Source: a virus (lineage: Duplodnaviria > Caudoviricetes). Taken from it: a stretch of DNA of 64,000 nucleotides. Below the pieces are notes generated by a model. That model did not search any database and was not told where the DNA came from. It saw only the letters and a list, made by a program, of their open reading frames with translations. How positions within the stretch are numbered: position 1 is the first letter of the stretch; every line of letters starts with the position of its first letter. Made by a program: the position numbers and the translations under genes. The stretch spans positions 32,001-96,000 of IMG/VR virus record IMGVR_UViG_3300025872_000041; one strand, written 5' to 3'. Positions 15,965 through 62,122 of this stretch are shown here, one piece after another.

Positions 15965-16312
15965 ATGACACATTTTATAAATCGCAGATGGCTAATTATT
16001 CCCGCTACAGCAGTAGAAAGCATTAACTTTGATGAGATATTAGAAAACTCTTTAGATACTTTAAGATACTCTGTAGATGGTACGAAAACTTTTATTAAGT
16101 ACAATCTTGTAGAAACTACAGAAACTGAAGTAGAAACTGTTAACTCTGAAACGGGTGAAAAGTTAATTGTAACCGTTCCTGCAGGTATTTACGGTAGACC
16201 TAACATTTATCAAGAAGGTATGAAAGAGTATACTCATGAGGAAATTCTAGAATTGTTATCTACGGATGAATGGAACACAAGTGACAACCCGTTAAGTAAC
16301 TTGACAAAATAA
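15965..16312 (+). CDS. Small acidic hypothetical protein, tail-associated by context
   Basis: Clean ORF starting 2 nt after the previous stop; motifs TLRYSVDGTKTFIKY and YTHEEILELL..EW. Confidence 0.7.
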   Translation: MTHFINRRWLIIPATAVESINFDEILENSLDTLRYSVDGTKTFIKYNLVETTETEVETVNSETGEKLIVTVPAGIYGRPNIYQEGMKEYTHEEILELLSTDEWNTSDNPLSNLTK

Positions 16313-16331
16313 ACTTTATTGAGTATATTTG
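16301..16331 (+). promoter_or_regulatory. Bacteroidota primary-sigma promoter candidate (TTG-N20-TATATTTG)
   Basis: Matches the -33 TTG / -7 TAnnTTTG consensus upstream of the ORF at 16368; overlaps a TATATT-N5-TGTA motif. Confidence 0.5.
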
Positions 16332-16367
16332 TTATGTATACAAATCTAAAATTATAATTTTACAACA

Positions 16368-16874
16368 ATGGCACTTAAAATCACAAAAAGCATTGGTACC
16401 GATAAAGGTATTACCAATGAAGCTTACGTACGTATTGCTGACTACCAAATCTCTAAGAGTGGTAACGCTAACTTCCGTATTCAATTATTCATGAGCGCTG
16501 CAGATGCAGTAGCTTCTCCTAACGCTATGGCTCCTATTGACGGAGGTCAAGCACGTAACCAACAAATTGGTGAGTACTTGTCTATTCCTTTGACTAAGCA
16601 AGTTGAAGAGACTAAGACTCGCACTATGATGCAGCCTGTACAGAAGGACGTAGTTAAGACTCGTACTATCACTAACGAAGCAGGTGAAGAAGTATCAGAA
16701 GAGTACACTGTACAAGAGTACGTAACTGAAGAAGTTACTGAAGAGTACACCGTTACTTTGACTGTTCCTGATTTGTCTTCTGCAGAAGGTGTTGACATTT
16801 TTGCATTTGGTTATAGCCACTTGAAAGCCAAACTTGTCAGTTTATTCTCTGCCGCAAAGGTAGAAGACTGCTAA
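16368..16874 (+). CDS. Hypothetical protein, possibly tail-fibre associated
   Basis: Clean ORF with an A-rich leader and a Glu/Thr/Val-rich internal segment; no family recognised. Confidence 0.75.
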   Translation: MALKITKSIGTDKGITNEAYVRIADYQISKSGNANFRIQLFMSAADAVASPNAMAPIDGGQARNQQIGEYLSIPLTKQVEETKTRTMMQPVQKDVVKTRTITNEAGEEVSEEYTVQEYVTEEVTEEYTVTLTVPDLSSAEGVDIFAFGYSHLKAKLVSLFSAAKVEDC

Positions 16875-16907
16875 TTTGGCATAGTTTAAAGAAAAGTATT
16901 ATATTTG
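16875..16907 (+). promoter_or_regulatory. Bacteroidota primary-sigma promoter (TTTG-N21-TATATTTG)
   Basis: Exact match to the TTTG / TAnnTTTG consensus, 24 nt upstream of the ATG at 16932. Confidence 0.7.
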
Positions 16908-16931
16908 CATAAACCAACTAAATATATAATC

Positions 16932-17213
16932 ATGGCTACCAAATTAACTGAACAAGAAATCGAAGCAATCAAAGGCTTCCAGCAAAAGACTCAAAACGTA
17001 ATTATGGATTTGGGTAAGATCGAACTTCAAATGAATGACTTGCTTTCTGTAAAAGAGAAAGTAAAAGAAGCAATGGCTGAAGTAGTAAAAGAACAGAATG
17101 AGTTCTTCCAATCTATTGAAGCTAACTACGGTAAAGGTCAGATCAATTTGGATACCTTTGAGCACATTGCTGCTGAAGCTCCTGCAGAACCTACTATGTC
17201 TGTAGTAGAGTAA
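16932..17213 (+). CDS. Small coiled-coil protein, possible fibre assembly chaperone
   Basis: The ATG at 16932 is preferred because the TTG at 16905 lies inside the promoter. It has a heptad pattern followed by YGKGQINLDT. Confidence 0.7.
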   Translation: MATKLTEQEIEAIKGFQQKTQNVIMDLGKIELQMNDLLSVKEKVKEAMAEVVKEQNEFFQSIEANYGKGQINLDTFEHIAAEAPAEPTMSVVE

Positions 17214-17264: not shown

Positions 17265-17286
17265 ATTAGTGATTAATTGTTTATAT

Positions 17287-17302
17287 TATAGTGTACACTA
17301 TA
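17287..17302. repeat. Perfect 16-bp palindrome TATAGTGTACACTATA
   Basis: Self-reverse-complementary and intergenic, overlapping a TATATT-N4-TGTA motif upstream of 17329. Confidence 0.8.
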
Positions 17303-18869: not shown

Positions 18870-19406
18870 ATGAGCTGTAATTGTCAACCAAAACCCTGTG
18901 GCTGTGAGGATACCAAATTGGTATCCCCAGTTACTACTGAATGTGCTATCTCTGAACTATGTGATGAGGTAGTAAGTTTTGAATGCGTTAAATATACCGG
19001 TAATGATATTTATACTATTGATATCAAGAAGAATGAGCGTCTTGATTTAGTAGTAAAAAAATTAGTATTATATTTAACTAATCCAAACTGCTTTAATCCA
19101 CTAGCTACTTGTCAATCAATCAAGAATTTTAATATTAGTAATGTTAAACAAACCGAAGCAACTGTCAGTTATACTGTTCCTGGTGCTCCTGCTACTATTA
19201 CTTCAACTAAATTACAATGGTCTACAGACCCTGCGTTTGTAACGGTTACAGGTTCTCAGTCAATTCTTGTTAGTGCTACGCCTAAGTGGACTATTATTAA
19301 CTTGTCAGCAAACACAACTTATTATGTAAGATTACTTACTAGTACTTCTGGTAGTGCTGATTGCTGTACATCTATCACCTTATCATTTAAAACATTAACA
19401 ACCTAA
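18870..19406 (+). CDS. Cys-rich protein with a C-terminal FN3-like domain
   Basis: N-terminal CNCQPKPCGC; CVKYTG motif paralogous to CVIWQG of the upstream gene; FN3 signature INLSANTTYYVRL. Confidence 0.72.
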   Translation: MSCNCQPKPCGCEDTKLVSPVTTECAISELCDEVVSFECVKYTGNDIYTIDIKKNERLDLVVKKLVLYLTNPNCFNPLATCQSIKNFNISNVKQTEATVSYTVPGAPATITSTKLQWSTDPAFVTVTGSQSILVSATPKWTIINLSANTTYYVRLLTSTSGSADCCTSITLSFKTLTT

Positions 19407-19849
19407 TGGCATCTTTATATTTAACTTTTACTCCTCCTAATCCTATACCAGCTCTTGGTTATTTGGTAAAATACAGAGTTAATTCTCCTCAAGGAGCATG
19501 GCAAAGTATGGTTTTTCCACAATCTAGTGGACCAATTCAGTTAGCAGGATTAACATCAACTGTTTATGATGTTGAAGTATATGCACGTTGTGGTTCTGGC
19601 GAAGACGTAACGCTTAGCTTAGTATCATCTGATACAACTATTGTACAAAGTTGTACTAGTTATACAGTTAATAATCCTACAGGAAGTGCTAAGCTTTTAA
19701 ACTATGAAGCTTGTGGTACAAGTGGTGAAGAAGTTAATTTAAATATTAATGCTGGAACTACTATTTCATTATGTATTGTTACTGGACAGTATACAGCCGC
19801 TTCGGGATTAGTTGTTACCGCAGGTAGTGCTTGCGTACCACCACTTTAA
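19406..19849 (+). CDS. Small FN3-like protein
   Basis: GYLVKYR...W...LAGLTSTVYDVEVYARC pattern; start overlaps the previous stop (TAATG). Confidence 0.68.
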   Translation: MASLYLTFTPPNPIPALGYLVKYRVNSPQGAWQSMVFPQSSGPIQLAGLTSTVYDVEVYARCGSGEDVTLSLVSSDTTIVQSCTSYTVNNPTGSAKLLNYEACGTSGEEVNLNINAGTTISLCIVTGQYTAASGLVVTAGSACVPPL

Positions 19850-19888
19850 TTTGGATAATTAAAAATCATTTACTATATTAATATTGTA

Positions 19889-19958
19889 TAAGTACTAAGA
19901 GGGTTTGTTGGTTTACCCCTCTGATTAGACCCCGGTGTAAAAAGCCGGGGTTTATTTT
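19889..19958 (+). ncRNA. Candidate small RNA: hairpin with a U/G-rich loop followed by a terminator
   Basis: Follows TATATT-N5-TGTA (19874-19888). Stem AGAGGG/CCCTCT (19898-19922) encloses TTTGTTGGTTT, then stem ACCCCGG/CCGGGGT with a T tract. No ORF is present. Confidence 0.45.
19929..19958 (+). terminator. Intrinsic terminator
   Basis: ACCCCGG-TGTAAAAAG-CCGGGGT followed by TTATTTT. Confidence 0.85.
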
Positions 19959-19966
19959 ATAATAAC

Positions 19967-19995
19967 TTGATTATAAACTATTTTTACTACATTTG
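19967..19995 (+). promoter_or_regulatory. Bacteroidota primary-sigma promoter candidate (TTG-N18-TACATTTG)
   Basis: TAnnTTTG lies 16 nt upstream of the ATG at 20012, directly after a terminator. Confidence 0.6.
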
Positions 19996-20011
19996 ATAAA
20001 ACAATTACCGC

Positions 20012-21220
20012 ATGTATTCACAAGAATTAAAAGATAAGGTAGCTAAAAGTAAAGAATGGAAGCTATCTAATATTGAGTGTGCAAGAAGAATTGGTATTAC
20101 TTTAGATGAATATTTAAAGATTAAAAAGTCTCTAGGATTTAAATCTAAAAAATTAAAATACAATTCAGAACATAATGTAGAAAGAATTAATTCGGAGTCT
20201 TATGATTTAGAAAAAGGCACAGGTAAGATAGAGAAATTAGTATCAGTTAATCCTAAAACCCCTGAAGAGATTATAGAGATCTTGGGTATAGATACTACAG
20301 AGTGGAAGTTATCTCAATATTGGAATAAGGAGAGAAGTGATAAATGGTTAGTATCAGCTTTAGTAACTAAAGTAGTAAAGACTAAAGAAGATTATCTAAA
20401 AGACATCATAGAAAACTTTAAACCGGATTATAAACCAGTAGTAGTAAAGAAGCAAAAGAGACACCGATATGTAAGCTGTGTACTATCTATGCAAGATATG
20501 CATATTGGTAAGGATGGTAATGATGATATCATAGAACAGTACTTTGCTTCACTAGAACAACTTACAGAGAGTGTATCTAATAATTACTTTATAGATGATC
20601 TAGTGTATGTTGTAGGTGGTGATATATTAAACATGGATACGTTTAATGGTACTACTACATCAGGTACTCCGGTAGAGAACTCTGATAAAGCCTACAAAGT
20701 ATATGCTGAAGCTTTTGATGCCCTATACCGGGGCATTCGTTTTTTAAAGGAGAGGTGTGAGACATTACATATAATGTTTATACCCGGTAATCATGATAGA
20801 CTATCATCTTATCATCTAGTACATGCTCTCTCTAAAGCTGTACAAGAGGATGGTATAGTATGGCATGCTGATTATGCAGAGAGAAAAGTACTTACGTTTA
20901 ACAATAACTTCTTTGCATTTGAGCACGGAGATGTAAATACTAAGAACTCATTACTAGTTTATGCTACTGAATTTTCAGAGCCCTGGGGTAATACTAAATT
21001 TAGAACTCTATATACTGGACATTATCATAAGAAGAAAACTGTAGAGTATATTACAGAGGATGAAATAACTGGTTTCTCTATTAAGATTATTCCTAGTCTA
21101 TCTAAAACAGACTACTGGCACTACCATAATAAGTTTATTGGTAGTAAGAGAGCTGCCCTTATTGAGGTTCATGACTATGACAATGGTAAGATTGGAGAGT
21201 TTGTTTATAACTGTATTTAA
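20012..21220 (+). CDS. Calcineurin-like metallophosphoesterase with an N-terminal HTH-like segment
   Basis: All five motifs are present: DMH, GGD, GNHD, HGD and GHYH. N-terminal SNIECARRIGIT looks like an HTH. Confidence 0.88.
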   Translation: MYSQELKDKVAKSKEWKLSNIECARRIGITLDEYLKIKKSLGFKSKKLKYNSEHNVERINSESYDLEKGTGKIEKLVSVNPKTPEEIIEILGIDTTEWKLSQYWNKERSDKWLVSALVTKVVKTKEDYLKDIIENFKPDYKPVVVKKQKRHRYVSCVLSMQDMHIGKDGNDDIIEQYFASLEQLTESVSNNYFIDDLVYVVGGDILNMDTFNGTTTSGTPVENSDKAYKVYAEAFDALYRGIRFLKERCETLHIMFIPGNHDRLSSYHLVHALSKAVQEDGIVWHADYAERKVLTFNNNFFAFEHGDVNTKNSLLVYATEFSEPWGNTKFRTLYTGHYHKKKTVEYITEDEITGFSIKIIPSLSKTDYWHYHNKFIGSKRAALIEVHDYDNGKIGEFVYNCI

Positions 21221-21846: not shown

Positions 21847-22512
21847 ATGGTAACTATTGGAACCGTAGTCTCAAGGGTAAAAAATCAAGTTAAGAGTGTA
21901 AGACAAGATGCATTTCTTACTAATAGGTATGTTTATAATGTTATAATTAAATATGCCCAAGTTCTGATGAGGAGACAAGACTCTCAGAATAAACTATCTA
22001 AATTTAATTCTATTTGGCAAACTTTACCATGTTTAGAGTTAATTGAAATAGATAAGGTTGAAGCATGCTGCGCTGGTATAAAATCTGGGCGCACTATAAT
22101 GCGTACAAAAGATAAACTTCCCACATTCATGGAAGGTTACTGGGGTCCTTTAATTAGATCTGTAACGTCTATAGATGGTAGTCAGGAATTAAATCCTACT
22201 ACACCTGGTGTTTATACCTCTATGACTAAGACTACAGGTTTTAAATATAACAACACTAAGTACTACTGGTTTTTAAACGGTTATTTATATATGCCGAATA
22301 TTAGCTGGGAAGCTTTAAAGATAGAAGGTATTTTTATTCAAGATGTATCTCAGTATACAGATGAAGATACTTGTATTAAAAGAATGGATCATAAGATTAA
22401 TGTTCCTGAATTTTTATTAGCTGAAGCAGAAAAAATGGCTATCCAAGATTTTATTGGAAGATTACAGATTCCTTCAGATTTATCAGATGACAATATTAAC
22501 TTAAACAGATAA
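21847..22512 (+). CDS. Putative tail ring/adaptor protein
   Basis: Size and synteny; N-terminal helices and YYWFLNGYLY beta motif. Confidence 0.5.
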   Translation: MVTIGTVVSRVKNQVKSVRQDAFLTNRYVYNVIIKYAQVLMRRQDSQNKLSKFNSIWQTLPCLELIEIDKVEACCAGIKSGRTIMRTKDKLPTFMEGYWGPLIRSVTSIDGSQELNPTTPGVYTSMTKTTGFKYNNTKYYWFLNGYLYMPNISWEALKIEGIFIQDVSQYTDEDTCIKRMDHKINVPEFLLAEAEKMAIQDFIGRLQIPSDLSDDNINLNR

Positions 22513-22516
22513 GGCA

Positions 22517-23371
22517 ATGCTTACAGAATTAAAATATAAAACCTTTGATGAATTACTTGAAGATGTAAGCGTTGATTTCTCAATGTATTCTTTAGAGGGT
22601 ATGATTGAGCCTCAACAACTTATTAAAGTTGTTCAGAGAATAAATTATGATTTAGGTTTAAGAATATTTAAAACTAAAGAAGAGGTTCTAGACATTGAGA
22701 ATAATCTGGTAAAACTACCAGATGATTTCTATGTAATGAACTATGCTTTACTTTGTGGTCAATACAAAGTTGAACAGCCGGCCATGAGTGGTACTCACGT
22801 TGAGGAAGTTATAATTGACCCGGCAACTGTTACTACTCCATGTGGGGATACTTGTATTACTGATTGTGGTGATCATATGCGTCTTGTACAAAAATTACAG
22901 TATGAGACACGAATATACGATATAAATACACCAATTACATTAACTGGTAACTCTAAAAGTATTTCTTGTGATTGTCCTAATACCTCTTATAAATCACCAT
23001 ACGTTGGTAAACTTAAAGATGGTTTTATATACATGAACTTAGAGACTGGAAAACTATATGTTAACTATCAAGGAGCTTTAGAAGATGAGGATGGTAACTT
23101 ATTAATCTTAGATCACCCAATGATTAATGAGTACTATGAGTATGGTTTAAAGCAAAGAATACTTGAGAATCTTTATATGAATGGAGAGGACGTAATGCAA
23201 AAGTTAAATCTTATTGAACAAAGATTCAGAGGAGCTCGTAACAATGCATTGTCTATTGTAAATACTCCTAACTTTAAAGAGTTATCTAAATTGCATGATA
23301 TGAATAGACGTGCTATGTATGGCAAGTACTACGATCAATTTAAAAGTTACAACTATAATAGTTCTAGATAA
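22517..23371 (+). CDS. Putative tail tubular/ring protein (P22 gp4-like as annotated in crAss-like phages)
   Basis: LDIENNLVKLPDDF and GKLYVNYQG..EDEDGNLLILDHP motifs; immediately precedes the muzzle-sized gene. Confidence 0.6.
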   Translation: MLTELKYKTFDELLEDVSVDFSMYSLEGMIEPQQLIKVVQRINYDLGLRIFKTKEEVLDIENNLVKLPDDFYVMNYALLCGQYKVEQPAMSGTHVEEVIIDPATVTTPCGDTCITDCGDHMRLVQKLQYETRIYDINTPITLTGNSKSISCDCPNTSYKSPYVGKLKDGFIYMNLETGKLYVNYQGALEDEDGNLLILDHPMINEYYEYGLKQRILENLYMNGEDVMQKLNLIEQRFRGARNNALSIVNTPNFKELSKLHDMNRRAMYGKYYDQFKSYNYNSSR

Positions 23372-42636: not shown

Positions 42637-45600
42637 ATGGAAGAATTTGACAATGCAATTCCACCACTAGGTGTTGAACCCGGTTTGCCTTCTAACTTTG
42701 AAGGATCAGATGCTTTTCAAGCAAGTATTGCGCCAACTAATGAGCCGTTAATATCTGTAACTGATACCTATGCTGTTCCTGGAGTTCCAGTACCTTCAGC
42801 ATTTGGTAGCGTTGCTGTAGATTATGATCCTAGTAATCCTTTTGATGTTGCTAAACAAGCATTGACAAAACCTATTACTGAATCTGATGTTGCATTTGAG
42901 ACTTCAAAAGAAAAATATTTTCAGCCTGGGTATCAGCAAACAAACTTTGATAGATACTATAATGATAGTGATAACTTCTATAAGCTAGGATTTAATCCAT
43001 TAGCTAATAACGAAGCATTATATAATCAGAATAGAAGTTGGTATCAAGATTTATTTAGAGCAGCTGGTGGTATTCCTTCATTAGGATTATCTGTTGTTCA
43101 ATCAGGATATAGAAGTCTTGCCGATATGGCAACTGGTGATTTCTCTATGACTGATGAAACTGGTGCTAGAGAGTTCTCCCAGATTATGGCAGAACGCGGC
43201 AGCACTAGAGGTGGTGTATCTGGTTTTGCTTCTAATTTAGTTTTACAATCAGGATTTGTTGCAGGTATTGCAGCAGATTACTTAGCTACTGAAGCATTAC
43301 TTGCTGGTGCTGTAGGTTTATCTGAAGGTATGGCTCTTCCTGCAGCTCTTGCTGCTAGTGCTTCTAAAACAGCTGGTACTATTAGATCCATTTCTGCATT
43401 GTTTGATGCTAATACTGCTAGACAAGCTTACAATACAATTAAAGCTATGGATGTGGCTGCTATTGGTAGAGGTGCATTAAATGTAGCTGAAGCAACTGCT
43501 AAGAATATTGTTCCTAATACATTTAAGAATGTTAAGAGTTTCATTACTGCAGAAAGCCCTGTATTAGGATTAGCTAATTCAGTAAGAGGTGTTGCTGACT
43601 TTGTAAGAGATATGAAGCAGATTAGCTATGCTACTGCTGAAGCTTCTATGGAAGGCGGAGGAGTTAAAAATGATTTTATTGATAAACATATTAATCAATA
43701 CATTACTGAGAATGGAGTATATCCAGATCAAGATGTATTAAATAAGATTTATGAGAAGGCATCAGATGCTGGTTTTACAACTGGTATGATAAATGCACCC
43801 CTTATTCTTCTTACAAACAATATCACTTTTGATAACTTGTACAAAGGTCGTAAAAGCACATTAGGTAAAACAGCTTCAGGTATTGTAGAGGAAAGTAAAT
43901 TAACTGGAAAAACTTTAAGATTCTCAGAAAGAACCGGACAGTTTGAGACTATGGGTATAAGACAATCTTTTGCTGAAAGCATAAGAGGTCTTAAAACTCC
44001 AAAAACGTACATGCAGTTTGCTGGTGGTTATTTCTCTAAAAACTTATCTGAAGGTCTTCAGGAAATTTCTCAAGAGATTATTTCTGGAGCATCTACAGAT
44101 TACTATGAAAGATTATATGATACTCCAGAAGCTGGAGGTGTAGTAGCTTACTTAGCAGATGCTTATGATAATCTTAAAGATCAAGCATCAGCACAAGGTA
44201 TTGAAGTATTTGCTTCAGGATTTTTAATGGGAGGTCTTACCGGTATTTCTACTGCTGTAGCTAACAGAGCTTATGGTAGTAGTAAAAATATTATTGGTAA
44301 GATAGCACAAGCTAAGAACCCAGAAGAGTATAGAAAAGCTGTAGAAGAAGAGAGCGCTAGATTTAATAAGATTGCTGATGAATTAAATGATGCCATTAAT
44401 AATGGTAATAAAGTTCTTGCTCTTGATATAGATAATTTATTATTACAAATCAGAGGAGGTACTGATATGGTTAATGCTAGAAAATCATTTGATGAAAAAG
44501 CATTCCATGATATTAAAGACATAACTCGTTTTAATAGTATCTATACAGCTCTTCAAACTGACAAATATGATTTCTTAATTAAGAAATTACAGGACATGCA
44601 GCAAATGACCGGTGCAGAATTAAAAGAGGCATTTAGTTTAGCTGATGATGTTACAGATGATGAGGCCAAAAAAGTATTAGATATTACTATTGATAGAGCT
44701 GGTCAAATTAAAGATCAGTATGAGCAGTTCTCTGCATTTAAGAATCCTTTTAATCCTAATACTTATAGATCTGCTAATACTCCAGAATCCATTATTGGAT
44801 TTATTAATGAGTTACAAAGTTATAAAGGATTTGAAGAGGCCCGCAAAACTGCAGTATTTAGTTTACATGGTTTAGAACAAGCTAAGACACGTATGGCTGA
44901 TTTAACTAAACAGATGTCATCTATTGGTGGTGTTGCTGATTTAGGTTACTCTGATGTTACAGCTACCTTAAGTATTGCAGGTATTGATAATGAAATAAAC
45001 TTATTAACTGCAGAGATTGAATCTAGTAAAGATATAACTGATCCGGGTCTTATTGAGATTAATGATAATAAAAAGAAGAAGTTAAAAGCTTTAGAATCTT
45101 TAAAAACTAATCTTGCCCGTGTTGAAAATATTAATGATCCTGTAGAAGTAAGAAAGACTTCTTATTTAAAGAAAGCTTTTAATGACTACATGAAGGTTCT
45201 TTTAGATGAGAAAGGTACTGAACTCAGTCCTGCAGATCTAAATGAAGCATATAGAATCTTTACTGATTATTATGCACTCAATTATGATAAGACAAACTTT
45301 AATAAAGTCTTGGCTGACTTATATGATCCTAATAACTTTATTAAGCTTGCTGAAAGAGAGCGTACTTTAGTTGTTGCAAGAGATAAAAGAAGAGCTGAGT
45401 TCTTTAAGAAAGCATTTAAAAAATATGCTGAGACATCTAAGATTGGTATATTTTTAAAAGCTTTAGCTACTGGTGGATTTGTTATTGATCTTAAGTATCT
45501 TAAAGCTTTAGATACTAATACATTTGATGAGCTTAAAGAACTTATTTTAAATGATCCGGATATTAAGTTTAGAGATCTAAATAGTAATAAGTTATTTGGT

Positions 45601-48600
45601 AAAGAAGATCCAAGATTTCAAAATATTAAATCTTTTGTATCTGACTTTGAAGTAAAAACAAAAGCTGAAGTAAAACAAACACCATCTGATACTAGTAAAC
45701 CCAAAGAGGCATCTCAATTTTCTACAGATACTACAGAAGAGGAAGAAGAACTTGGTTCAGAAGATATCACAGATGTAAGTGAATTTACACAAACTATTGT
45801 ACGTAGAGCATATGATGATTACTTAAAGGCTTTAAAAGAAGCAGACATACCTGTATCATTTGAAGAGTTTGCAACAAGTAAAAAAGCTGTTAGTATTATT
45901 AATGCTCTAACAGAGTTAGAAGCAGCTTATGATGCTATTACGGAAACTAAACCTGAGTTTACTGAATGGTTAAGAGTAAATGCAAGAACCCCTGTAGTAT
46001 TTGATGTACTAGATAAAAATGGTGTAACTTTCTCAGATATCTTTATTCAACAAAGAGATGAGAATCAATATATTACTACAGCATTAGAAGAAGGTGAAAG
46101 TATTGTATCTTCTGGATATAATGGGGTTTTTATAACTAAACTTGTAGGATCTATTGAAGGCGGAGAAGGTGTAGATATTTATTTTGTAAAGTTAAACGAT
46201 GGCACTATGGCCATTGATGCTACTAATAAGCCTGATGAACTAATTGATTTTGAAATAGATATTTATACAAGTTTAGAGAAAGCTCAAAAAGCTCAAAAAG
46301 CAATTGGTGATTATTTAGCTAATAATAAAAAACAATTTGTATTTGACAATACTCCATTAGTTAATGGTCAGATTATATCTGATAATAAAAATAATGAATA
46401 TGTAGTTTTATCTTATCCTTCAGAAATTGCTGCTGGCTCTAATCTTAAACTTAAAAACTTAAAGACCGGAGCTATTCTAACTACTAAATCTTTTACAGGA
46501 TTTAAATTAGAGAGAGTACCTGTTGAAAAGAAAGAATATGCTTCAAGATTTGATTCTACTAGTGTATTAGATAGAGCTTGGGGTAAAAGAATGGAGAATG
46601 AATCTCAGAAAGATGCAACAGCACGTCTAAGTAATTTATTAAGAGATACTCCTATTGAAGAATTACTTAGTGGTCTTAGTATTAGATTTACTAATCTTAA
46701 TAAATCTCCTGAGAGATATGATTATCTTAGGTTACCAGATCAGAAAGAAAATCAATCGTTTGGTTTATTTACTGATTCTTATGCAATTGCATTAGTATTT
46801 AATGGTGAAGAGATTGGTTATTTACCTAATCCTACATCTTTCCAATTCTTAGATGTAAATGGTAATCCTATCTCTTATGATAGAATAAATGCTGATAGAG
46901 TTAAGCAAGCTTTCTATTTAAAGAATGGTAGATACAATCAAGCAGTTGCTGATATAAAAGCTAGTTATAAGAATAAAATTGCTTTATTAAATTATTTAAA
47001 ATCTAAACTTGGCAAAAATACATCTGTAGAAATTCCTTATTCAGATCTTAAGAAGGTTGCAAATATCAATATTGGTTTAGGATCTTATGAGTTCTTATCT
47101 CGTGATGAAGAAAGACCTAAGTTTTCTGGATTAACTTATAATACTATTAATGGTGGTATCTATGTAATTGATAGAAAAAATAAATATAAGAATGGTTCTA
47201 TTGTAACAGTAGAAGGTTCTCCTATTACAGATATTGATCCTGATTTATTAGAGTCAACCATTAAAGAAGTTGATGCTGCTAGGTATAAAAACGGTTATGA
47301 TACTTTACTTAACTATGGTAGATATGTAGCTGTTGTCAAACTACCTAATGGTAAAGTTAGATTTGTTGAGTTAACTACACCAGAACTTTCTTCTGAAGAG
47401 TTAAATACTTTAGCTGCTAGCATTAAAGAAAGAATTGAGTTAACTAAGAAAGAGAATATAGATGACGAGGGTAAACCATTAGCTCAGGAATATAATGATG
47501 TATGGAATGAAGATAATATTGGTAGTAAACTATTTATTTCTTTACCATTAAAAGATAGAGGTAAGTTTCTAGATATTTATGTTAGTCCTAACGGATCTTT
47601 AGTTTTAGACTTTGTAAATAAAAATTCTAGAGCTGATAAAATAACTCGTAAGAAAATTATTAATGACCCTCAGTTTAATACATTCTCTGAATTACTTACT
47701 TTACTAAATACTGCTATTAAAGAACATGATGCTGATGTAAAGTTACCAGCTAATAAAATGGATATTGTCCTTACTGGTAGATCATTTAAAGCAACTTTAC
47801 CAATGAACATTGATACATTACAGGTTCTAGATATGGAAGCTAGTGTAGGTGTTAATGTGGTTAAAGATGTATCTGTATATGTAGATATGCTTGAGCCAGC
47901 TTCTGATGTTCAAGCACAACCGTTATTACCAAAAACTCCAGATGATGTATTAGATATAGATACTTCTAATATTGATTTTAGTTCTGCTCCTCCTGATGCA
48001 AATATAAATCCAGAGTTATTAAGAGGTGTTGCACCTGTTCAAGTAAGTTCTGGAGATGCTCTAAGTAAAGTATTAGCTGCTCAAAAATCCATTCCTCAGC
48101 AGATTAAGCAGTTACAAGCTGAAGCTGATACTAAAACTGATGAAGTAAAAAAAGTATTATTAGCTCAAAGAGTTGCTGAGAAAGGTGAATTAACTACTGC
48201 TGATAAAAAAGAGATTAGGACAAAAGCTGAAAACTCTCCAGAAGTATTAGCTATTAAAGCTCAAATTAAAATCTTAACTGATTCTCTAGCATTAAAAGCA
48301 GTAAATACTGGTTACACTGAATCTGATGTAACTAATTTAACTGAGTTCTTAACCTGGGTACAAAATAATCTTCCGGACTTTGTGACTGTAGAAGATTTAA
48401 ATACTCTTAAGAATAACTTATATAAAGATGGTAAGACTGTGGGTGCATTTGTATCTTCATTGTCTAACATAGCTGGTAATGTAGAAGTAAATGGTACTAT
48501 ATATACATCCGCTAGTTCTCCATTTAAATATCATGAAGCTTTTCACGCAGTATTCCGTTTATTATTAAATGATGCTCAGATATCTAGATACTTAACAATT

Positions 48601-51600
48601 GCTAAAAAAGAGTTAAGAGATCAGTTGCGTAAAGAAGGTAAGTCATTCTCTTTAGCTAAAGAAGAGATGCGCTTATTAAATCCTCTTTATGCAGCAATGA
48701 GTGAGTCTCAGTTAGAAGAGAGAATGTATGAAGAGTACCTTGCTGATAAGTTTGATGCTTGGAAGCTTAATAAAAAAACAGAGACTAGTCATGTAAACAA
48801 AAGTTTATTTGCTAAAATTGTTGAGTTAATCAAGAAAATATTTAGCAGATTTACTAAGAACGAATTAAACTCTTTGTTTGATAATATTGATGCCGGTAAG
48901 TATAGAAATAGTAAAGTAGTCACTAATAGATTTACAAACTCTCCATTTGATATAAGCGAGCCAGTACTTAAAGCTATTAAGATTGGTACAGATATAATTG
49001 AAGATTCTACATTTTCTGCTGAAGGTGAAGTTAATTACATTAGAGTAGATAAGTACTTACCTGAACAAGAAGGTACTAGGTTAGCTGCAACTGTAGCTGC
49101 TCTCTATAATAACAAACTTAAAGATGCAGATAAGCAAACTAATACTGATGAGTTATTAGATTCTGTATTGGATAGTTATGAAGAACTTTATGATCCAGAG
49201 TTAGATCAGTATGTTGATTTAGATACTGCAACTTTTAACAAATTAAAAGAATATAAAGCTATATTTAGCAAAACTGAAAATAGAGAAATTCTTAAGGAGG
49301 CAGTACGTGAACATTTAGCTATTTTAAGTATTAAAGAAACTAATGAGCAAGATGCTTCAGATGATACTATAGATGAGTTAGGAGAAAGAGGTAAGCAGAA
49401 TTATACCGAGGGTGCTGCTAGTGTAGGTGGTTTTGGTAGTTTATCTAAGTTTTTAAGATCTTGGATATCTACTATTACATATCAAGCAGCTGATGAATTT
49501 GGTAATGTACAGTTCTTAGATGGTACACCTTATATCCAATCAGTGGATGGTTCTACAGTATATAATGGTATTCTTAAAGCAATTGCTGGAACTGAAGATA
49601 TTGAGGAGGTTCTTTTAAAACTTAATTTATATAAAGAAAGAAACTTTGAGTCTGGTAAAGTTATTGAAGAATTCTTTATTCAGACTGGAGTAACATTTGA
49701 TGAAGAAGGTAATCTTGATCTCTCTAATATTAAAAATAGTTATTTGTTCCAATCTTTTACAAAAGGTTTTGGTCAGTATGCTATTGACTATTTATTTATT
49801 AATAAGGATCTTAAAAAAGAGATTGCAAATATTATCTCTGCAAATAGAAAAGATTCTGGTAAAGTACAGTTTGATCAATGGTCACAAGCATACAGTAATG
49901 CTTATGAAAGTAAATTAACTCCAGAATTAAAAGCTAAAGCCAAAGTTGTTTTAACTAAGATTATGGGAGCAATGGCACCAACTAAGAAATATACTGATGA
50001 TGAATTAATCCAGCTAACTAATAAGTTATCTGTAGAATTAATGGAAGTATTGGGTATTTCTTTAAGTGGTATGTATTTATCTTATTCTATTGCAAGTATT
50101 ATAAATAATCTTACTCCTCAGCAAATTAAACTATTTAAAATATACTCTAATGTAACACCTATTACTAGAGGTGATATTGATGCTTTATATGGTTTAGTAG
50201 ATAGCGAAGAAAATCCTTTTATAAATATTCAATATGAAACAACTGTAGATGCTGAAACAGGAGAGGTTACTCAAGAAACAGAAGTACTAGAAGGTGGTGC
50301 TACTACACGTTTATATAATATGGCAAAAGCTAATGCTATATTTGATGAGTCTGTATATGCTACTAGCTGGAAAAATGCAGAAGGTCAATTAGTATATGTA
50401 CACCAATTACCATCATATCACTTAGTTAAGATAAATGAGATTAAGAAAGTCGGTGGTATTGAAGACTTATTAAAAGATCCATTCTTAGCAAATAACTATT
50501 TATTAAATGATCCAAATTTCTTAGCATCTCTTGATTTACTTACAGTTAAAAGAATAGATGGGCAAAAAGTAAGTAGTCTTAATGAGACAGAAGATGGTGA
50601 TGTAATTGAAAACAAACAACTTGAGGTTAACAGACGTGAGGGAACTACATATGGTAGTTTTACTCCTGAAGAATTTATTGTTAGTTTACTTGATTTATAT
50701 TCTGCCGGAGATGTACAAGAAAGAAATAAAGTTAAGTTTGGTATATCTACTCATCTTATTCGTGTTCTAGAAGCATCTAGTACCGGTAACGTAATTAATT
50801 TACCTGTAATTAAAGCCGCTGCTAAAGTATCTGGTAAAAATACTTTAACCAAACAAGCACAAGATGCATTACTTGGTTTTGTAGAACAAGAATATAATCG
50901 TATTCAAAGAGTAGCTAATGGTGAATTTACAGATGAGATTTATGATTTTAATACTGGTAAGATGCGCGGTCTTACATTATTTAAGACTGGTAAACTAATA
51001 AGTGAGGATTTAAAGAATGAATTAGAAGCACAAGCTCAAGAGAATTTACCTATAAGTGAACAACAAAAAGCACAGATTAAAAAAGAGATGACTCAGTCTA
51101 TGCTTAATGATGTAAATTTCTTAATCACTTTGTTAGATGAAGATAATATTTTACAAGTAGAAGATGGTAAAGTAACTAAATCTGCATTAGCATCTTTTGT
51201 AACTAAAGGTTTTACTAATAAAGATAAAAAGAAATCTACTGATAAAACTAAAAACAGTATATTTAATTTAGCAAAAGATGATTACAGATATAATCTTTTA
51301 CAGATCTATGTAAATGATTTTATTAATACTACTGCTATTAACCAATTAATGCATGGTGATCATGCTATATCATTTAAGGATGCTGTAGATGAAATTAAAC
51401 GTGCTAAAGGATCTAATGCTACTGGTTCTAATATTGAAGCAGTTATAACTGATGAAAAACTAGGTATCAAGCATGCATTTAAAACTGCTCATGTAGTTAC
51501 TATTTCAGATCCTTTATTTCAAGCTAAATATGCAGGTGGTAAAGGAGAAAAAGCAAATGCTCAGATGTGGATGAGTGTAAAAGCTTTACGTTATACATTA

Positions 51601-54600
51601 TTTGGTTTAGGTAAACTATCTCCTATTCAAGCTGAGTTATTAAACAAAATTGAAAATGGTGAAACAGTAACTGGTGATTTCTTCTTTGGTGATGAAAAAC
51701 ATAAAGGTGCTGTCTCATTTGATGCTGCTACTAATTCTATTAAGTTAGTATATTTTGATGGTCAAACATATATTAAGACATCTGGTTTTGTACTAACTAA
51801 AGAGTTTACTTCTTATGGTAAAAACTTTGATCAAGCTTTACCTGGTAAAGAACCATTACACAATTTACGTAAGACTCTTGAAGCTTATGAAGCAAATAAA
51901 GAAACTGTAAGTTTAGCAATTCCAGTATCTGCATCTAAAGGTAAAAAGATAAATGTAGCTAGTGATGTAAATAGTATTACAGATGCTAATTTTATTGAGA
52001 CTAGCACTAAATATTGGAGATTACAATTAGAGAATCCTTCTAATAAAATAATAATTACAGATACAACTCAAATTAAAACAATTCTTACAGCAGAACAAGA
52101 TGATGAGACGCTAGTTAATTTTATGGGTACTGATATTTCGGTTGGAGATCTTAAAAAGATTTATCAAAATGCATCTATTAACCGAGTTAAGATTAATTAT
52201 ATTGGTAAAAGAAATGCAATCTTTACTTTAGATTCAGGATTAGAAGAAGTTAAAAAATCTATTGCAGCTGGAACAGTAACTCCTAAACTTGCAGCATTCC
52301 AAAAATATGCTATTGAGACATTAAAATCTTCAGCAGGTGATGCTCAAATGATTGAGTTCTTTGAACTAGATGAGCAAGGAGAGCCCAAGTATGATCTTAA
52401 CTCACCTATTACTATTGATAAGTTTGTTGAGTTGTTCTTATCATATTTCTCTAAAGGTGTCTTATCTGAAAAAGTTCCAGGACATGCTGTAGCATTGGTA
52501 TCTGATTATGGTGTAAAGCAACTTAAAAAAGTACTAGAGTTGGATGAGAATGGTCAACCAAAGAGATGGGAGATTGTAAGAGTTGAGGAATTTAAACTTA
52601 ATCCTTCTAAGTATGGTACACCTAAAACTCAAGCTGATCTAGAAAATAGAACATTTAATGATTTACAAGTAGGTGATTATTATGTAGATGACTTAAGACA
52701 TAACGTACCTGAGTATGATGAAAATGGTAATATTACTGGATACTTTACTGAGTTTATTATGCCAGCTCACTTTAAAGAGTTATTAAGTTTTATTAAGCCC
52801 GGTGATAAAATACCAGATGCTGTAGCTAAGATGTTCGGTGTACGTATTCCTTCACAGGATAAACACTCTGCAGTAGCTCTCAAACTTGTAGATTTTATGC
52901 CAGTATATTATGGATCATCTGCAGTATTTCCACAAGAACTTATTGAGATATCTGGAGCTGACTTTGATATTGATAAACTCTATATAGCCATTCAAGAATG
53001 GTTAGTAGAGAATGGTAAATTTGTAGCCTATGGTAGTGGAACTACTAAGACAGAAAAATTTAATCAGTTTGTAAAATATCAATTTAGTAAGAATAAAGAA
53101 TTTAGAAAGATATATAATGATTATTATAAGGCTTTTGAAAAAGAAGCTAAAGAATTTAAAGAGTATGCTGCTGATTATTTAGATGAGTTAGATATTATTG
53201 ATGAGAATGCTACTACTTTAGATTTTAATAAAAAAGAAATTATTCAAGCAGCTTTACAATATTTAAATCTTCCATCCACTGCAGATGAGTATAATACTAA
53301 AGTAGAAAAGTTAGGATATGAACCTTATCAAGGAGCCCTTAATAATGTAATTGTAAATGGACGTATTGCTTTATTAAATAATTCTGCTATGGTTACTGCA
53401 AAAGAAGGAGAGATTCCTAAAGCATTTCAGGTAGCTACTGTACAACCCCTTATTGATATAGTTAAAAGCTTCACTGAGCAGTTTCCTGAACTTAAAGATC
53501 AATTAGAAGAAGGTAAATATAATATTGATACTCTACTTGGTAAGTACTATGCGTTTAGAAATAATAAAGAAGGTGCTAGAAACATTGGACCAGCGGTTAA
53601 CTCTTTACTTGTTTATTCATTATTAAATGCTAATAATATTGATATTAGAAAAGCAAGTACTTATACAGATGAAACAGGTGAGAAGATAGATCTTACTAAT
53701 TTAAGATTTAAGCTTAATGGTAAAGAGTTTGATACATATAGTGAGACTAAAGCTTATGATCCAAAAACTGGAAAATATGATGGTAAGAGAATAGCTGATA
53801 TTCTATCTGCTTTAGTATCAGCTATGACAGATAACGCTAAAGAACGTCTTGCTGCTAAATTAAATCTTAATATAGATTCATTAGGTGTTGTAGCTAATAT
53901 GGTAGCCCAGGGTGTATCATTAGAGGATAGCTTACTATTCATCAATCAACCGGCAATACGTAAGTTCTATAAAACTTTAAGAACAAATAAATCTTCATAT
54001 GCTACAGATGCTGAAAGAAAAACAGGAAAAAATACTATTATTAAAAATCTAATAGAAGGTTATGATGTAAAAGAAATTCCTACTAATATTACAACAGAAG
54101 ATCTTATTGCTGGCATTAAAAGAAATACTCCTGAAATTCAAGTATATGTACTTAATAGTTTTAAAACTTTAAATCTGCAAGCAGATACTTTTATGAATAT
54201 ATCTGCAGTATTAAAAGTAAATAAGGGATTACCTAAAGATCTTACAGAGTTTGATGAAATCTATGATAAGGCTGTAGATTTAGGTTTAGAGATGACAGAT
54301 AAAGAGTTTGAGACTAGCTCAATACCATTTGATATTCGTCCTTTATTACGTAATCAGAATACAACTTTTGGATTTAACTTTACTGTATATAGAGAGATTA
54401 GATCTCTAACCGGTAGTGTTATGTTAAATCGTACACCTGTAGTTAATAGGATGCGTGATATAGTATTAGCAAATACAGAGGTTAACTTTAGAGACCGTCA
54501 AAACTTTAAAAAGTCATTAGACCAAAACTTAATTTCTTTCTTTGCTATTAAAGCTTATCTTAATATTTTAAATAAAGGCGGTTACAAAAGAGCTTTAGCT

Positions 54601-61786: not shown

Positions 61787-61873
61787 ATTAATTTTCACTA
61801 TATTATATATGTAGTACCCTAAAAACCATCTAGGGCTGCATCCCGAATCAACTGCGGTAAAAAATAATACCGT

Positions 61874-62122
61874 ATGAAACTATTAAACTTTATTGGAGGT
61901 CTTTTCAAGGATGAAAAAGGCTCCGTTTCTATGAAGCGCTTGTGTGGCTTAGTCTGCACTATTACTCTTTGCGCTACTTTGTATGCTAACTCTTTTACTG
62001 AGGCTCACTTTGCACCATCTGTACCATTGGTAGATGCTGTTGCTTTGTTGGCTTTTGGTTGTTTAGGTTTGACTTCTGTTGAGAAAATCATGAAGAAGCC
62101 AGAAGCTAATACTGAAGAGTAA
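61874..62122 (+). CDS. Putative holin (two transmembrane helices)
   Basis: 82 aa; SMKR followed by two hydrophobic segments and a charged C-terminus; directly upstream of the endolysin candidate. Confidence 0.65.
   Translation: MKLLNFIGGLFKDEKGSVSMKRLCGLVCTITLCATLYANSFTEAHFAPSVPLVDAVALLAFGCLGLTSVEKIMKKPEANTEE

Follow-up and report, generated by a model that had tools for sequence, protein, structure and literature searches.

What is the role of a small hairpin that stands just before a terminator, at the junction between the tail-fibre genes of a phage and a block that encodes tail ring proteins and giant virion proteins? The window, that is, the whole stretch of 64,000 nt that was analysed, corresponds to bases 32001-96000 of a 114,558-bp virus record, and the same sequence is present in public runs labelled freshwater or lake water. 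Pfam matches to CrAss_Ring_2 and CrAss_Ring_1 were found at 21847-23371 and to the Crassvirus major capsid protein at genome 21596-23215 (positions are those of the window unless marked as genome), and a family B DNA polymerase is encoded on the opposite strand; the source genome is a freshwater crAss-like phage. The junction contains the following features:

19406-19849, + strand: 147-aa ORF with a weak tail-fibre match, 5' of hairpin 1
19873-19895, + strand: block CTATATTAATATTGTATAAGTAC, directly 5' of hairpin 1, conserved in the relatives L002-L008
19898-19922, + strand: hairpin 1, defined from sequence and fold, with a 6-bp stem (AGAGGG at 19898-19903, CCCTCT at 19917-19922) and the 13-nt loop TTTGTTGGTTTAC (19904-19916)
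19926-19954, + strand: intrinsic terminator with an 11-bp stem, six G-C pairs and a 7-nt loop, its T-run reaching about 19959
19966-19995, + strand: Bacteroidetes-type promoter candidate (CTTG, 18 nt, TACATTTG), read from the sequence, for the 402-aa gene with its ATG at 20012
20012-21220, + strand: gene of a 402-aa calcineurin-like metallophosphatase (phrog_704, E = 1.6e-46; weak Pfam match)

Hairpin 1, the terminator and the promoter candidate are all housed in the 162-nt gap between the 147-aa ORF and the 402-aa gene, and no ORF of at least 30 aa was found on either strand over 19850-20004. A sequence-only reading of this DNA had described a hairpin and a terminator in an ORF-free stretch, and its statements about the sequence were all confirmed. 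Three bases separate hairpin 1 from the terminator, which is a G+C-rich stem-loop with a U-run behind it on the transcribed strand, and the loop of hairpin 1 is unpaired in the centroid fold. Taken alone, hairpin 1 is matched in folding by 29 of 200 shuffled sequences; the whole 92-nt stretch has a fold z-score of -3.2. The promoter-like motif that had been placed 5' of hairpin 1 does exist, although as a sigma-70 promoter it is a 9/12 match and no better. The CTATATTAATATTGTATAAGTAC block is kept in L002-L008 despite a differing upstream gene and is similar both to a repeated motif, TATATTATA..GTAC, and to the TATATTAAAGTATAAC block found 5' of the scaffold-like genes in relatives; as a possible phage promoter, it would give rise to a stand-alone small RNA in the window's subclade. 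In its own right, the motif TATATTATA(T/G)..GTAC precedes four transcription units (17282-17300, 19873-19895 and 61799-61820 in the window, and genome 20290-20312) and may represent a phage-specific promoter class, and in relatives TATATTAAAGTATAAC recurs 5' of the scaffold-like gene.

The metatranscriptome evidence (X15-X18) consists of assembled contigs, which are mute on RNA ends and levels and may reflect DNA carry-over. Two X15 contigs span 19231-19901 and 19876-20613, the second of which bridges the terminator, and the break at 19876 is the point of strain divergence 5' of the conserved block. The X16 contigs stop at 19738 and resume at 19980, leaving the element uncovered. At some distance from the junction, a 168-aa ORF (16368-16874, + strand) with no family match has strong host-type promoter matches on its 5' side (16301-16358) and the highest contig depth of the examined stretch in three RNA libraries, a contig-derived value that is to be taken as a hint.

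Downstream of hairpin 1 are found ORFs of 1579-4552 aa. Past the ring proteins, a single ORF of 4552 aa (42637-56295, + strand) is surrounded by others of 838-1934 aa, and the position of this region matches that of the phi14:2 block holding the virion RNA polymerase. On the tail-fibre side, a GIY-YIG-type homing endonuclease ORF (2116-2826, + strand; phrog_314, E = 2.4e-35) separates two large tail-fibre genes. In phi14:2, a Cellulophaga phage, the metallophosphatase g075 is in the place equivalent to that of the 402-aa gene and heads the block that extends as far as g066, the virion RNA polymerase. The 402-aa protein and g075 share 21% identity over 119 residues (E = 0.016), and since they are only weakly alike, the labels 'middle' for the downstream block and 'late' for the upstream block are synteny-based. 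The Bacteroidetes promoter consensus is TAnnTTTG. The layout of the candidate at 19966-19995 resembles that of the phi14:2 P075 region (TTG, 20 nt, TACTTTTG), and the promoter passages of the phi14:2 preprint (bioRxiv 10.1101/2020.03.07.982082) map the g075 promoter as a 'middle' one that is used by the host RNA polymerase and report no common early motif; in the preprint the words 'hairpin' and 'terminator' were looked for and not found. The gap 5' of g075 in phi14:2 has neither a hairpin nor a terminator. A DNA search of the phage collection with 19300-20700 gave no match, and a protein search of that collection returned relatives below 30% identity only.

Closer relatives were obtained by searching IMG/VR with the 402-aa protein, which gave 108, of which 80 were retained; one locus came without its upstream region, and 79 were examined. 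The hairpin is at the same junction in 78 of these 79 loci. In 77 of them a convincing hairpin with the loop motif lies at most 450 nt upstream of the 402-aa gene, in L046 it is about 600 nt upstream, and in L078 it is doubtful. The neighbouring proteins go down to 45-50% identity among these relatives, while the loop core TTTGTTGGTTT hardly varies: TTGTTGGTT is found in 69/79 loops and GTTGGTT in 74/79. There are 46 distinct hairpins with 23 distinct inner stems (AGAGGG, GGAGG, GTCAGG, GTCGGAG, GTTACG and ACAATAG are examples), and 11 loop positions are nearly invariant. One clade has an extra lower stem, which likewise covaries.

Since MAFFT alignments of the element (A1 and A2) put the stems out of register, RNAalifold detected the terminator only, and the stems were therefore anchored on the loop by a script and a small covariance model was built from three sequences. 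The model was run on 69 of 81 sources, with 12 duplicate or truncated loci excluded, and gave 44 matches at E <=1, including two off-target sites and the doubtful L078, which were aligned by fitting to the model; 28 of the 69 junction hairpins escaped it, bulged stems being frequent among these. Over 34 distinct rows, 90.5% of the cells are in a standard pair compared to 48.4% in shuffled alignments, and the covariation score is 1.03 compared to 0.24, with none of 500 shuffles reaching the observed value in either case; the slid-register controls scored 0.22 at most. Double, compensatory changes were observed in all six modelled stem pairs of hairpin 1 and, in the relatives' alignment, in all eight predicted pairs of the terminator. 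Internal G.T pairs outnumber A.C pairs in the hairpin stems (7 vs 2), which is consistent with a folded + strand RNA. Thus the conserved loop and covarying stem for which a search among relatives had been advised were both found, and the invariant, unpaired loop core on covarying stems is a conserved exposed seed of the kind that base-pairing small RNAs have.

The hairpin has a single canonical copy, always at this junction, in every one of 16 genomes that are nearly complete to complete, and in G010, a record with terminal repeats, it is located mid-genome (position 64,023 of 127,227), which does not suggest a packaging or end function. In the relatives the hairpin is always 3-20 nt 5' of a terminator, and in most of them it begins 0-20 nt past the upstream stop codon, i.e. 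in the 3'UTR; none of the other terminators in these genomes has such a hairpin. The loop TTTCTA (usually ..TG TTTCTA CA..) recurs in many intrinsic terminators of G005, G008, G009, G010, G011, G013 and G017, on quite different stems and in 1-4 intergenic copies per genome listed. The terminator that adjoins hairpin 1 belongs to this set where a match was found, and the TTTCTA loop is absent from the window's genome and from G004. Known RNA families did not account for the element: Rfam gave no match at the gathering threshold in the whole window (the best sub-threshold match had 19.9 bits against a threshold of 50, and the weak E-value matches were terminator-driven), and ARAGORN found no tRNA or tmRNA.

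The other half of the question is whether the loop has a partner. The 8-mer AAACCAAC, complementary to the loop, had been suggested for counting in leaders against background, and it turned out to be over-represented there and conserved 5' of orthologous ATGs. The 16 hairpin genomes have 43 sense-intergenic AAACCAAC sites, which places it first among 56 8-mers of the same composition, ahead of AACCAACA (26), AACCAAAC (18) and ACCAACAA (15), although these counts are over related genomes and hence not independent; AACCAACA and ACCAACAA are themselves pieces of the loop complement. In the sense intergenic DNA of the window's own genome AAACCAAC is also first among the 56 permutations. The base after AAACCAA in the sense intergenic DNA of the hairpin genomes is C in 43 cases, G in 6, T in 26 and A in 47; AAACCAA is one among several A-rich words that are enriched in leaders, and A-rich leaders can pair with any U-rich loop. 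In the reverse orientation, GTTGGTTT has 23 occurrences, mostly the hairpins themselves. There are no AAACCAAC sites in phi14:2, which has no hairpin, none in the intergenic DNA of the hairpin genomes G004 and G011, and the leader of the adjoining downstream 402-aa gene does not contain the loop-complement motif.

The leader in which the complement is best conserved is that of the scaffold-like gene that comes after the portal gene, for which at least 591 relatives were found. AAACCAAC is present in 69/80 of its loci and 59/68 distinct leaders, an exact match of 11-14 nt to the complement of the loop consensus is present in 51/68, and the four commonest 8-mers of these leaders tile AAAACCAACAA, so that conserved complementary sites, as expected for the targets of a base-pairing small RNA, do exist in start regions. 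The distance from motif to ATG is 0-6 nt in 61 of 63 occurrences, with a mode of 4. The scaffold-like leader of the window's genome has AACCAAC only. From these comparisons the scaffold-like gene, which is outside the window, would be the main conserved target, and the gene at 16932 described below would be one of several that are less conserved.

Two perfect complements of the loop, each of 11 nt, are found in the sense intergenic DNA of the window's genome, one at genome 23759, 16 nt 5' of the ATG of a 337-aa gene that is two genes downstream of the major capsid gene, and the other at genome 106715 (minus strand), upstream of the DNA polymerase gene and directly before a terminator. At the latter site (G000:C1:106665-106734, minus strand) the complement 5' of a terminator mirrors the hairpin-terminator pair, an arrangement also seen in G006, G007 and the distant G013. 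Matches of 9 nt are found at window 16910 and genome 12267. Such matches also arise by chance, since three of 10-11 nt lie antisense in coding DNA of the same genome. In distant relatives, motif sites recur 5' of orthologues: the 337-aa gene, the polymerase region, the glycosyltransferase cassette and several small genes.

Two leaders within the window had been singled out by the sequence-only reading:

16875-16931, + strand: host-type promoter and leader of a 93-aa gene (ATG 16932), candidate target, with TTTGG at 16875-16879, the -7 box TATATTTG at 16900-16907 and TAAACCAAC at 16910-16918
61817-61835, + strand: leader hairpin with the arms CCCUA and UAGGG around the loop AAAACCAUC (61822-61830), 5' of an 82-aa gene at 61874

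In the first of these, TAAACCAACTAA at 16910-16921 follows the Bacteroidetes-type -7 box TATATTTG directly and ends 10 nt before the ATG at 16932, and its 11/12 match to the loop complement was found as had been claimed. The same layout (-7 box, 2-4 nt, AAAACCAACA, ATG) is found in relatives in front of a different gene. In relatives, the first gene of the glycosyltransferase cassette lies 1.6-3.7 kb 5' of the hairpin, and its leader has ACCAAC in 8/8 loci with the hairpin downstream vs 0/72 homologues in other phages, which also have no hairpin, a contrast that is no independent test because the eight loci are closest mutual relatives. The cassette itself, in L105 (4001-6947) and seven relatives, is formed by four genes between the tail genes and the hairpin, encoding an unknown 306-aa protein, a GT2 glycosyltransferase, an FkbM methyltransferase and a GT2/GT7 glycosyltransferase. 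In the window, unrelated genes take the place of the cassette, and homologues of the 306-aa gene are found in many unrelated phage contigs.

The second leader, of 86 nt, has a fold z-score of -3.7, and since 6 nt of its AAAACCAUC loop are complementary to the loop of hairpin 1, a kissing contact between the two hairpins is possible. The loop is as had been described, whereas the name holin given to the 82-aa gene is position-based only, its sole basis being that the gene precedes an endolysin-like gene. As a separate observation, TAAACCAAC is found 36-40 nt 5' of hairpin 1 and on the same strand in L003 (2840-2848), in L008 (589-596) and in the duplicate L004; given that it is so near upstream, the loop could be masked in cis in those three. 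Four other close relatives have AAACCATC at that upstream place, and the window has neither TAAACCAAC nor AAACCATC.

If loop and leaders do pair, a change in one should at times be followed by the other, and loop variants are rare among the relatives. L076 has the variant loop TTTTATTGGTTTTT, and its own scaffold leader, which reads AAAACCAATAAAACCAACATAAATG, contains a 13-nt perfect complement of the variant, AAAACCAATAAAA, adjoining a canonical copy. The L038-type variant, at an edge position of the loop, has no matching leader change, and for the G-to-C loop variants L059 and L067 no compensating leader change was found in the contig fragments examined. Loop-target covariation therefore amounts to one case, L076, and is suggestive.

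The window taken by itself is less telling. Allowing one mismatch at most, the 12-mer occurs 4 times in the window against 0.82 expected (3 of 100 shuffles reach 4), and for AAACCAAC the count is 5 where 2.24 would be expected, which 8 of 100 shuffles also attain; the window-only matches are not beyond chance, and their significance derives from the comparison with relatives. The duplex between the loop and the leader of the 16932 gene has a predicted energy of -11.0 kcal/mol, second best of 91 genome start regions. Across those 91 regions, the best duplexes of this genome (-12.9 and -11.0 kcal/mol) were equalled by 25 of 200 shuffled loops, and three regions reach -9 kcal/mol or below, a number that 157 of 200 shuffled loops also reach.

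In light of these results, we propose that hairpin 1 is part of a short RNA, derived from a 3' end or made from its own promoter, whose loop would pair with AAAACCAACAA leaders and control their translation, a proposal that we hold to be about evenly balanced between right and wrong. Hairpin 1 and the terminator would form the 3' end of transcripts that leave the tail-fibre gene block. In most relatives the hairpin begins so soon after the stop codon that the RNA would come from the 3' end of the upstream transcript. The window's subclade might in addition make a free-standing RNA of about 65 nt from the 19873-19895 block, as had been suggested from the sequence alone, given that this block is conserved and resembles a repeated promoter-like motif. 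The exposed U/G-rich loop UUUGUUGGUUU, with YUNR-type turns, would then pair with the A/C-rich leader element AAAACCAACAA of its putative targets, namely the scaffold-like gene, the 337-aa gene, the first cassette gene (here the 93-aa gene at 16932) and the site upstream of the DNA polymerase gene. According to PMC6847099, Bacteroidetes do not use Shine-Dalgarno sequences, and it is the structure of the mRNA around the start site that tunes initiation. A duplex in the start region should thus matter in a host phylum where accessibility, and not Shine-Dalgarno pairing, tunes initiation, and one of 9-14 bp at -3 to -16 should alter the translation or the stability of the target mRNAs. Repression would be the default guess for the sign of the effect, with stabilisation or activation as alternatives.

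Pairing between two RNAs would be the simplest account of two complementary sequences that are separately conserved, and is the likeliest one; like the pairing itself, the accumulation of a short RNA and the sign and timing of its effect are inferred. The sequence-only reading had likewise suggested a small RNA, expressed late, that pairs with initiation regions to silence or retime other genes, a reading that is partly supported: the conserved loop, the covarying stem and the conserved leader complement speak in favour, whereas the duplex energies in this genome do not.

The alternative that best withstands these data, although we consider it unlikely, is that of a cis RNA element whose loop is bound by a conserved protein, of phage or host origin; this protein would decide what becomes of the upstream transcript at the junction, be it through read-through into the ~40-kb virion-gene block (nut/boxB- or LoaP-like), better termination or protection of the 3' end. 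It would account for the single copy at one fixed junction, always 3-20 nt before a terminator and in most relatives in a 3'UTR, 0-20 nt past the stop codon, as well as for a free stem with an invariant loop, which is typical of protein-recognised hairpins; genes of 1579-4552 aa do come after the junction, and the duplex statistics in the phage's own genome are not significant. The leader match would then be a by-product of U-rich vs A-rich composition, which leaves unexplained why the leaders of several orthologues conserve the exact complement, with its C-C-A-A-C core, more than any other element and why it is absent in phi14:2. Moreover, the following operon needs no read-through, given the promoter candidate 3' of the terminator, and no candidate loop-binding protein was identified. 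The element is like lambda nut (boxB) in that a small hairpin, its loop conserved and its stem free to vary, lies 5' of a terminator at the entry of a long operon. Of the features of a nut/boxB-type site, the position just 5' of a terminator is the one found here: unlike for lambda, no N-like or NusG-like partner was identified, and the next operon apparently has its own promoter after the terminator. We know of no conserved complement of nut sites elsewhere in the genome.

It is also possible, but clearly less probable, that AAACCAAC/GTTGGTTT acts as DNA, either as a double-stranded site of a phage DNA-binding protein or as part of a promoter or initiator, with opposite orientations at the leaders and at the junction, or as inverted repeats that bound a swappable accessory cassette. 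The leader copies keep a tight distance from an upstream TATATTA..GTATAAC block, so that the leader motif may lie at or near the transcription start; in the window and eight relatives a leader copy is found 1.6-3.7 kb 5' of the hairpin, on the same strand, around the variable cassette; and an N-terminal stretch of the 402-aa protein appears by eye to be helix-turn-helix-like, a putative assignment. The covarying stems with their seven G.T and two A.C pairs, however, indicate a folded single strand and not a duplex site, the minus strand of the hairpin copy has no promoter context, tandem leader copies are variably spaced (8 to 11 nt), and as for the cassette, no recombinase was seen in it and the site is asymmetric.

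A more speculative version of the pairing, to which we give very little credence, is that leader element and hairpin RNA together form a phage-borne substitute for the Shine-Dalgarno interaction, in which the RNA would dock in trans on the ribosome or on an initiation factor and recruit, as an adaptor, the mRNAs that have the element; it would be an activator and not a silencer. AAAACCAACAA would then occupy the Shine-Dalgarno position (0-6 nt ahead of the ATG, with 4 as the mode) on the phage mRNAs in heaviest demand, and GUUGGUUU would be the sequence of interest in the host 16S rRNA or in the rRNAs of candidate hosts.

That hairpin 1 is simply the weaker second stem of an ordinary tandem terminator, aiding termination or RNA stability with a loop conserved by descent, is scarcely tenable, for even though hairpin 1 alone is not unusually stable and the adjoining terminator is a normal member of the phage's set, which in one clade has the TTTCTA loop genome-wide, the loop of hairpin 1 keeps 11 near-invariant positions while the stem has been replaced 23 times and the neighbours are at 45-50% identity, such hairpins are missing from all other terminators of these genomes, and AAACCAAC is enriched and conserved in leaders.

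Several other candidates were dropped. A pseudoknot between the 5' part of the loop and the A-rich linker is sterically unlikely and composition-driven, the resemblance to a tRNA D-loop comes without a tRNA-like fold, and an integron attC core, an IHF site or a DGR hairpin have no supporting features, the motif being in the loop and not in the stem. A stop-codon read-through signal was set aside as the distance from the stop codon varies. An immunity RNA of the P1 c4 or P4 CI type would have a tRNA-like fold, whereas ARAGORN found nothing and the element has two plain hairpins. Hairpin promoters of the N4 type are expected in several copies 5' of early genes, with genes rather than a terminator following, whereas hairpin 1 is a single copy, mid virion-gene block, with the terminator directly after it.

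A base-pairing RNA of this sort would have counterparts in other phages. Phage antisense RNAs that pair with start regions include P22 sar, lambda OOP, P1/P7 c4 and the P4 CI RNA, and the targets of c4 and CI are repeated within the same genome. As in these four, a short phage-encoded RNA is predicted here with a loop complementary to sites near the phage's own start codons. Unlike them, hairpin 1 is not encoded opposite its target and belongs to a lytic crAss-like phage of a Bacteroidetes host; unlike c4 and CI, the RNA would have two hairpins and no tRNA-like cloverleaf, ARAGORN and Rfam being blank.

There is also a likeness to the small RNAs derived from 3'UTRs, such as DicF, CpxQ and OppZ/CarZ, the latter with autoregulation. 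Here too the RNA would be formed by a seed and the operon's own intrinsic terminator, most relatives have no room for a promoter between stop codon and hairpin, and one candidate target, the first cassette gene, lies in the region just upstream. The seed of hairpin 1 differs from those of DicF, CpxQ and OppZ/CarZ in that it is in a hairpin loop and not in a linear 5' region, and Bacteroidetes hosts are not, to our knowledge, users of Hfq. Base-pairing small RNAs of Bacteroides, e.g. GibS, do pair with A-rich start regions in this phylum, which does not use Shine-Dalgarno pairing and is not known to use Hfq, but hairpin 1 is phage-encoded and of a different family, without a match in Rfam.

In the literature on crAss-like phages that we searched, no RNA regulator and no such element were found. 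Our data thus reveal, across a large clade of crAss-like phages, a well-defined RNA element that is new, and regulation of AAAACCAACAA leaders by base pairing is its most probable role, at a confidence that we would place midway between doubt and certainty. In abundance, crAss-like phages rank with the foremost phages known. A compact, clearly delimited and highly conserved RNA with a matching leader element on scaffold and other genes makes post-transcriptional control in this group directly testable, and likewise the choice of start sites where the host does without Shine-Dalgarno pairing. Being present once per genome, the hairpin can also serve to mark the boundary of the two gene blocks in this clade, whose metagenomic members number in the hundreds.
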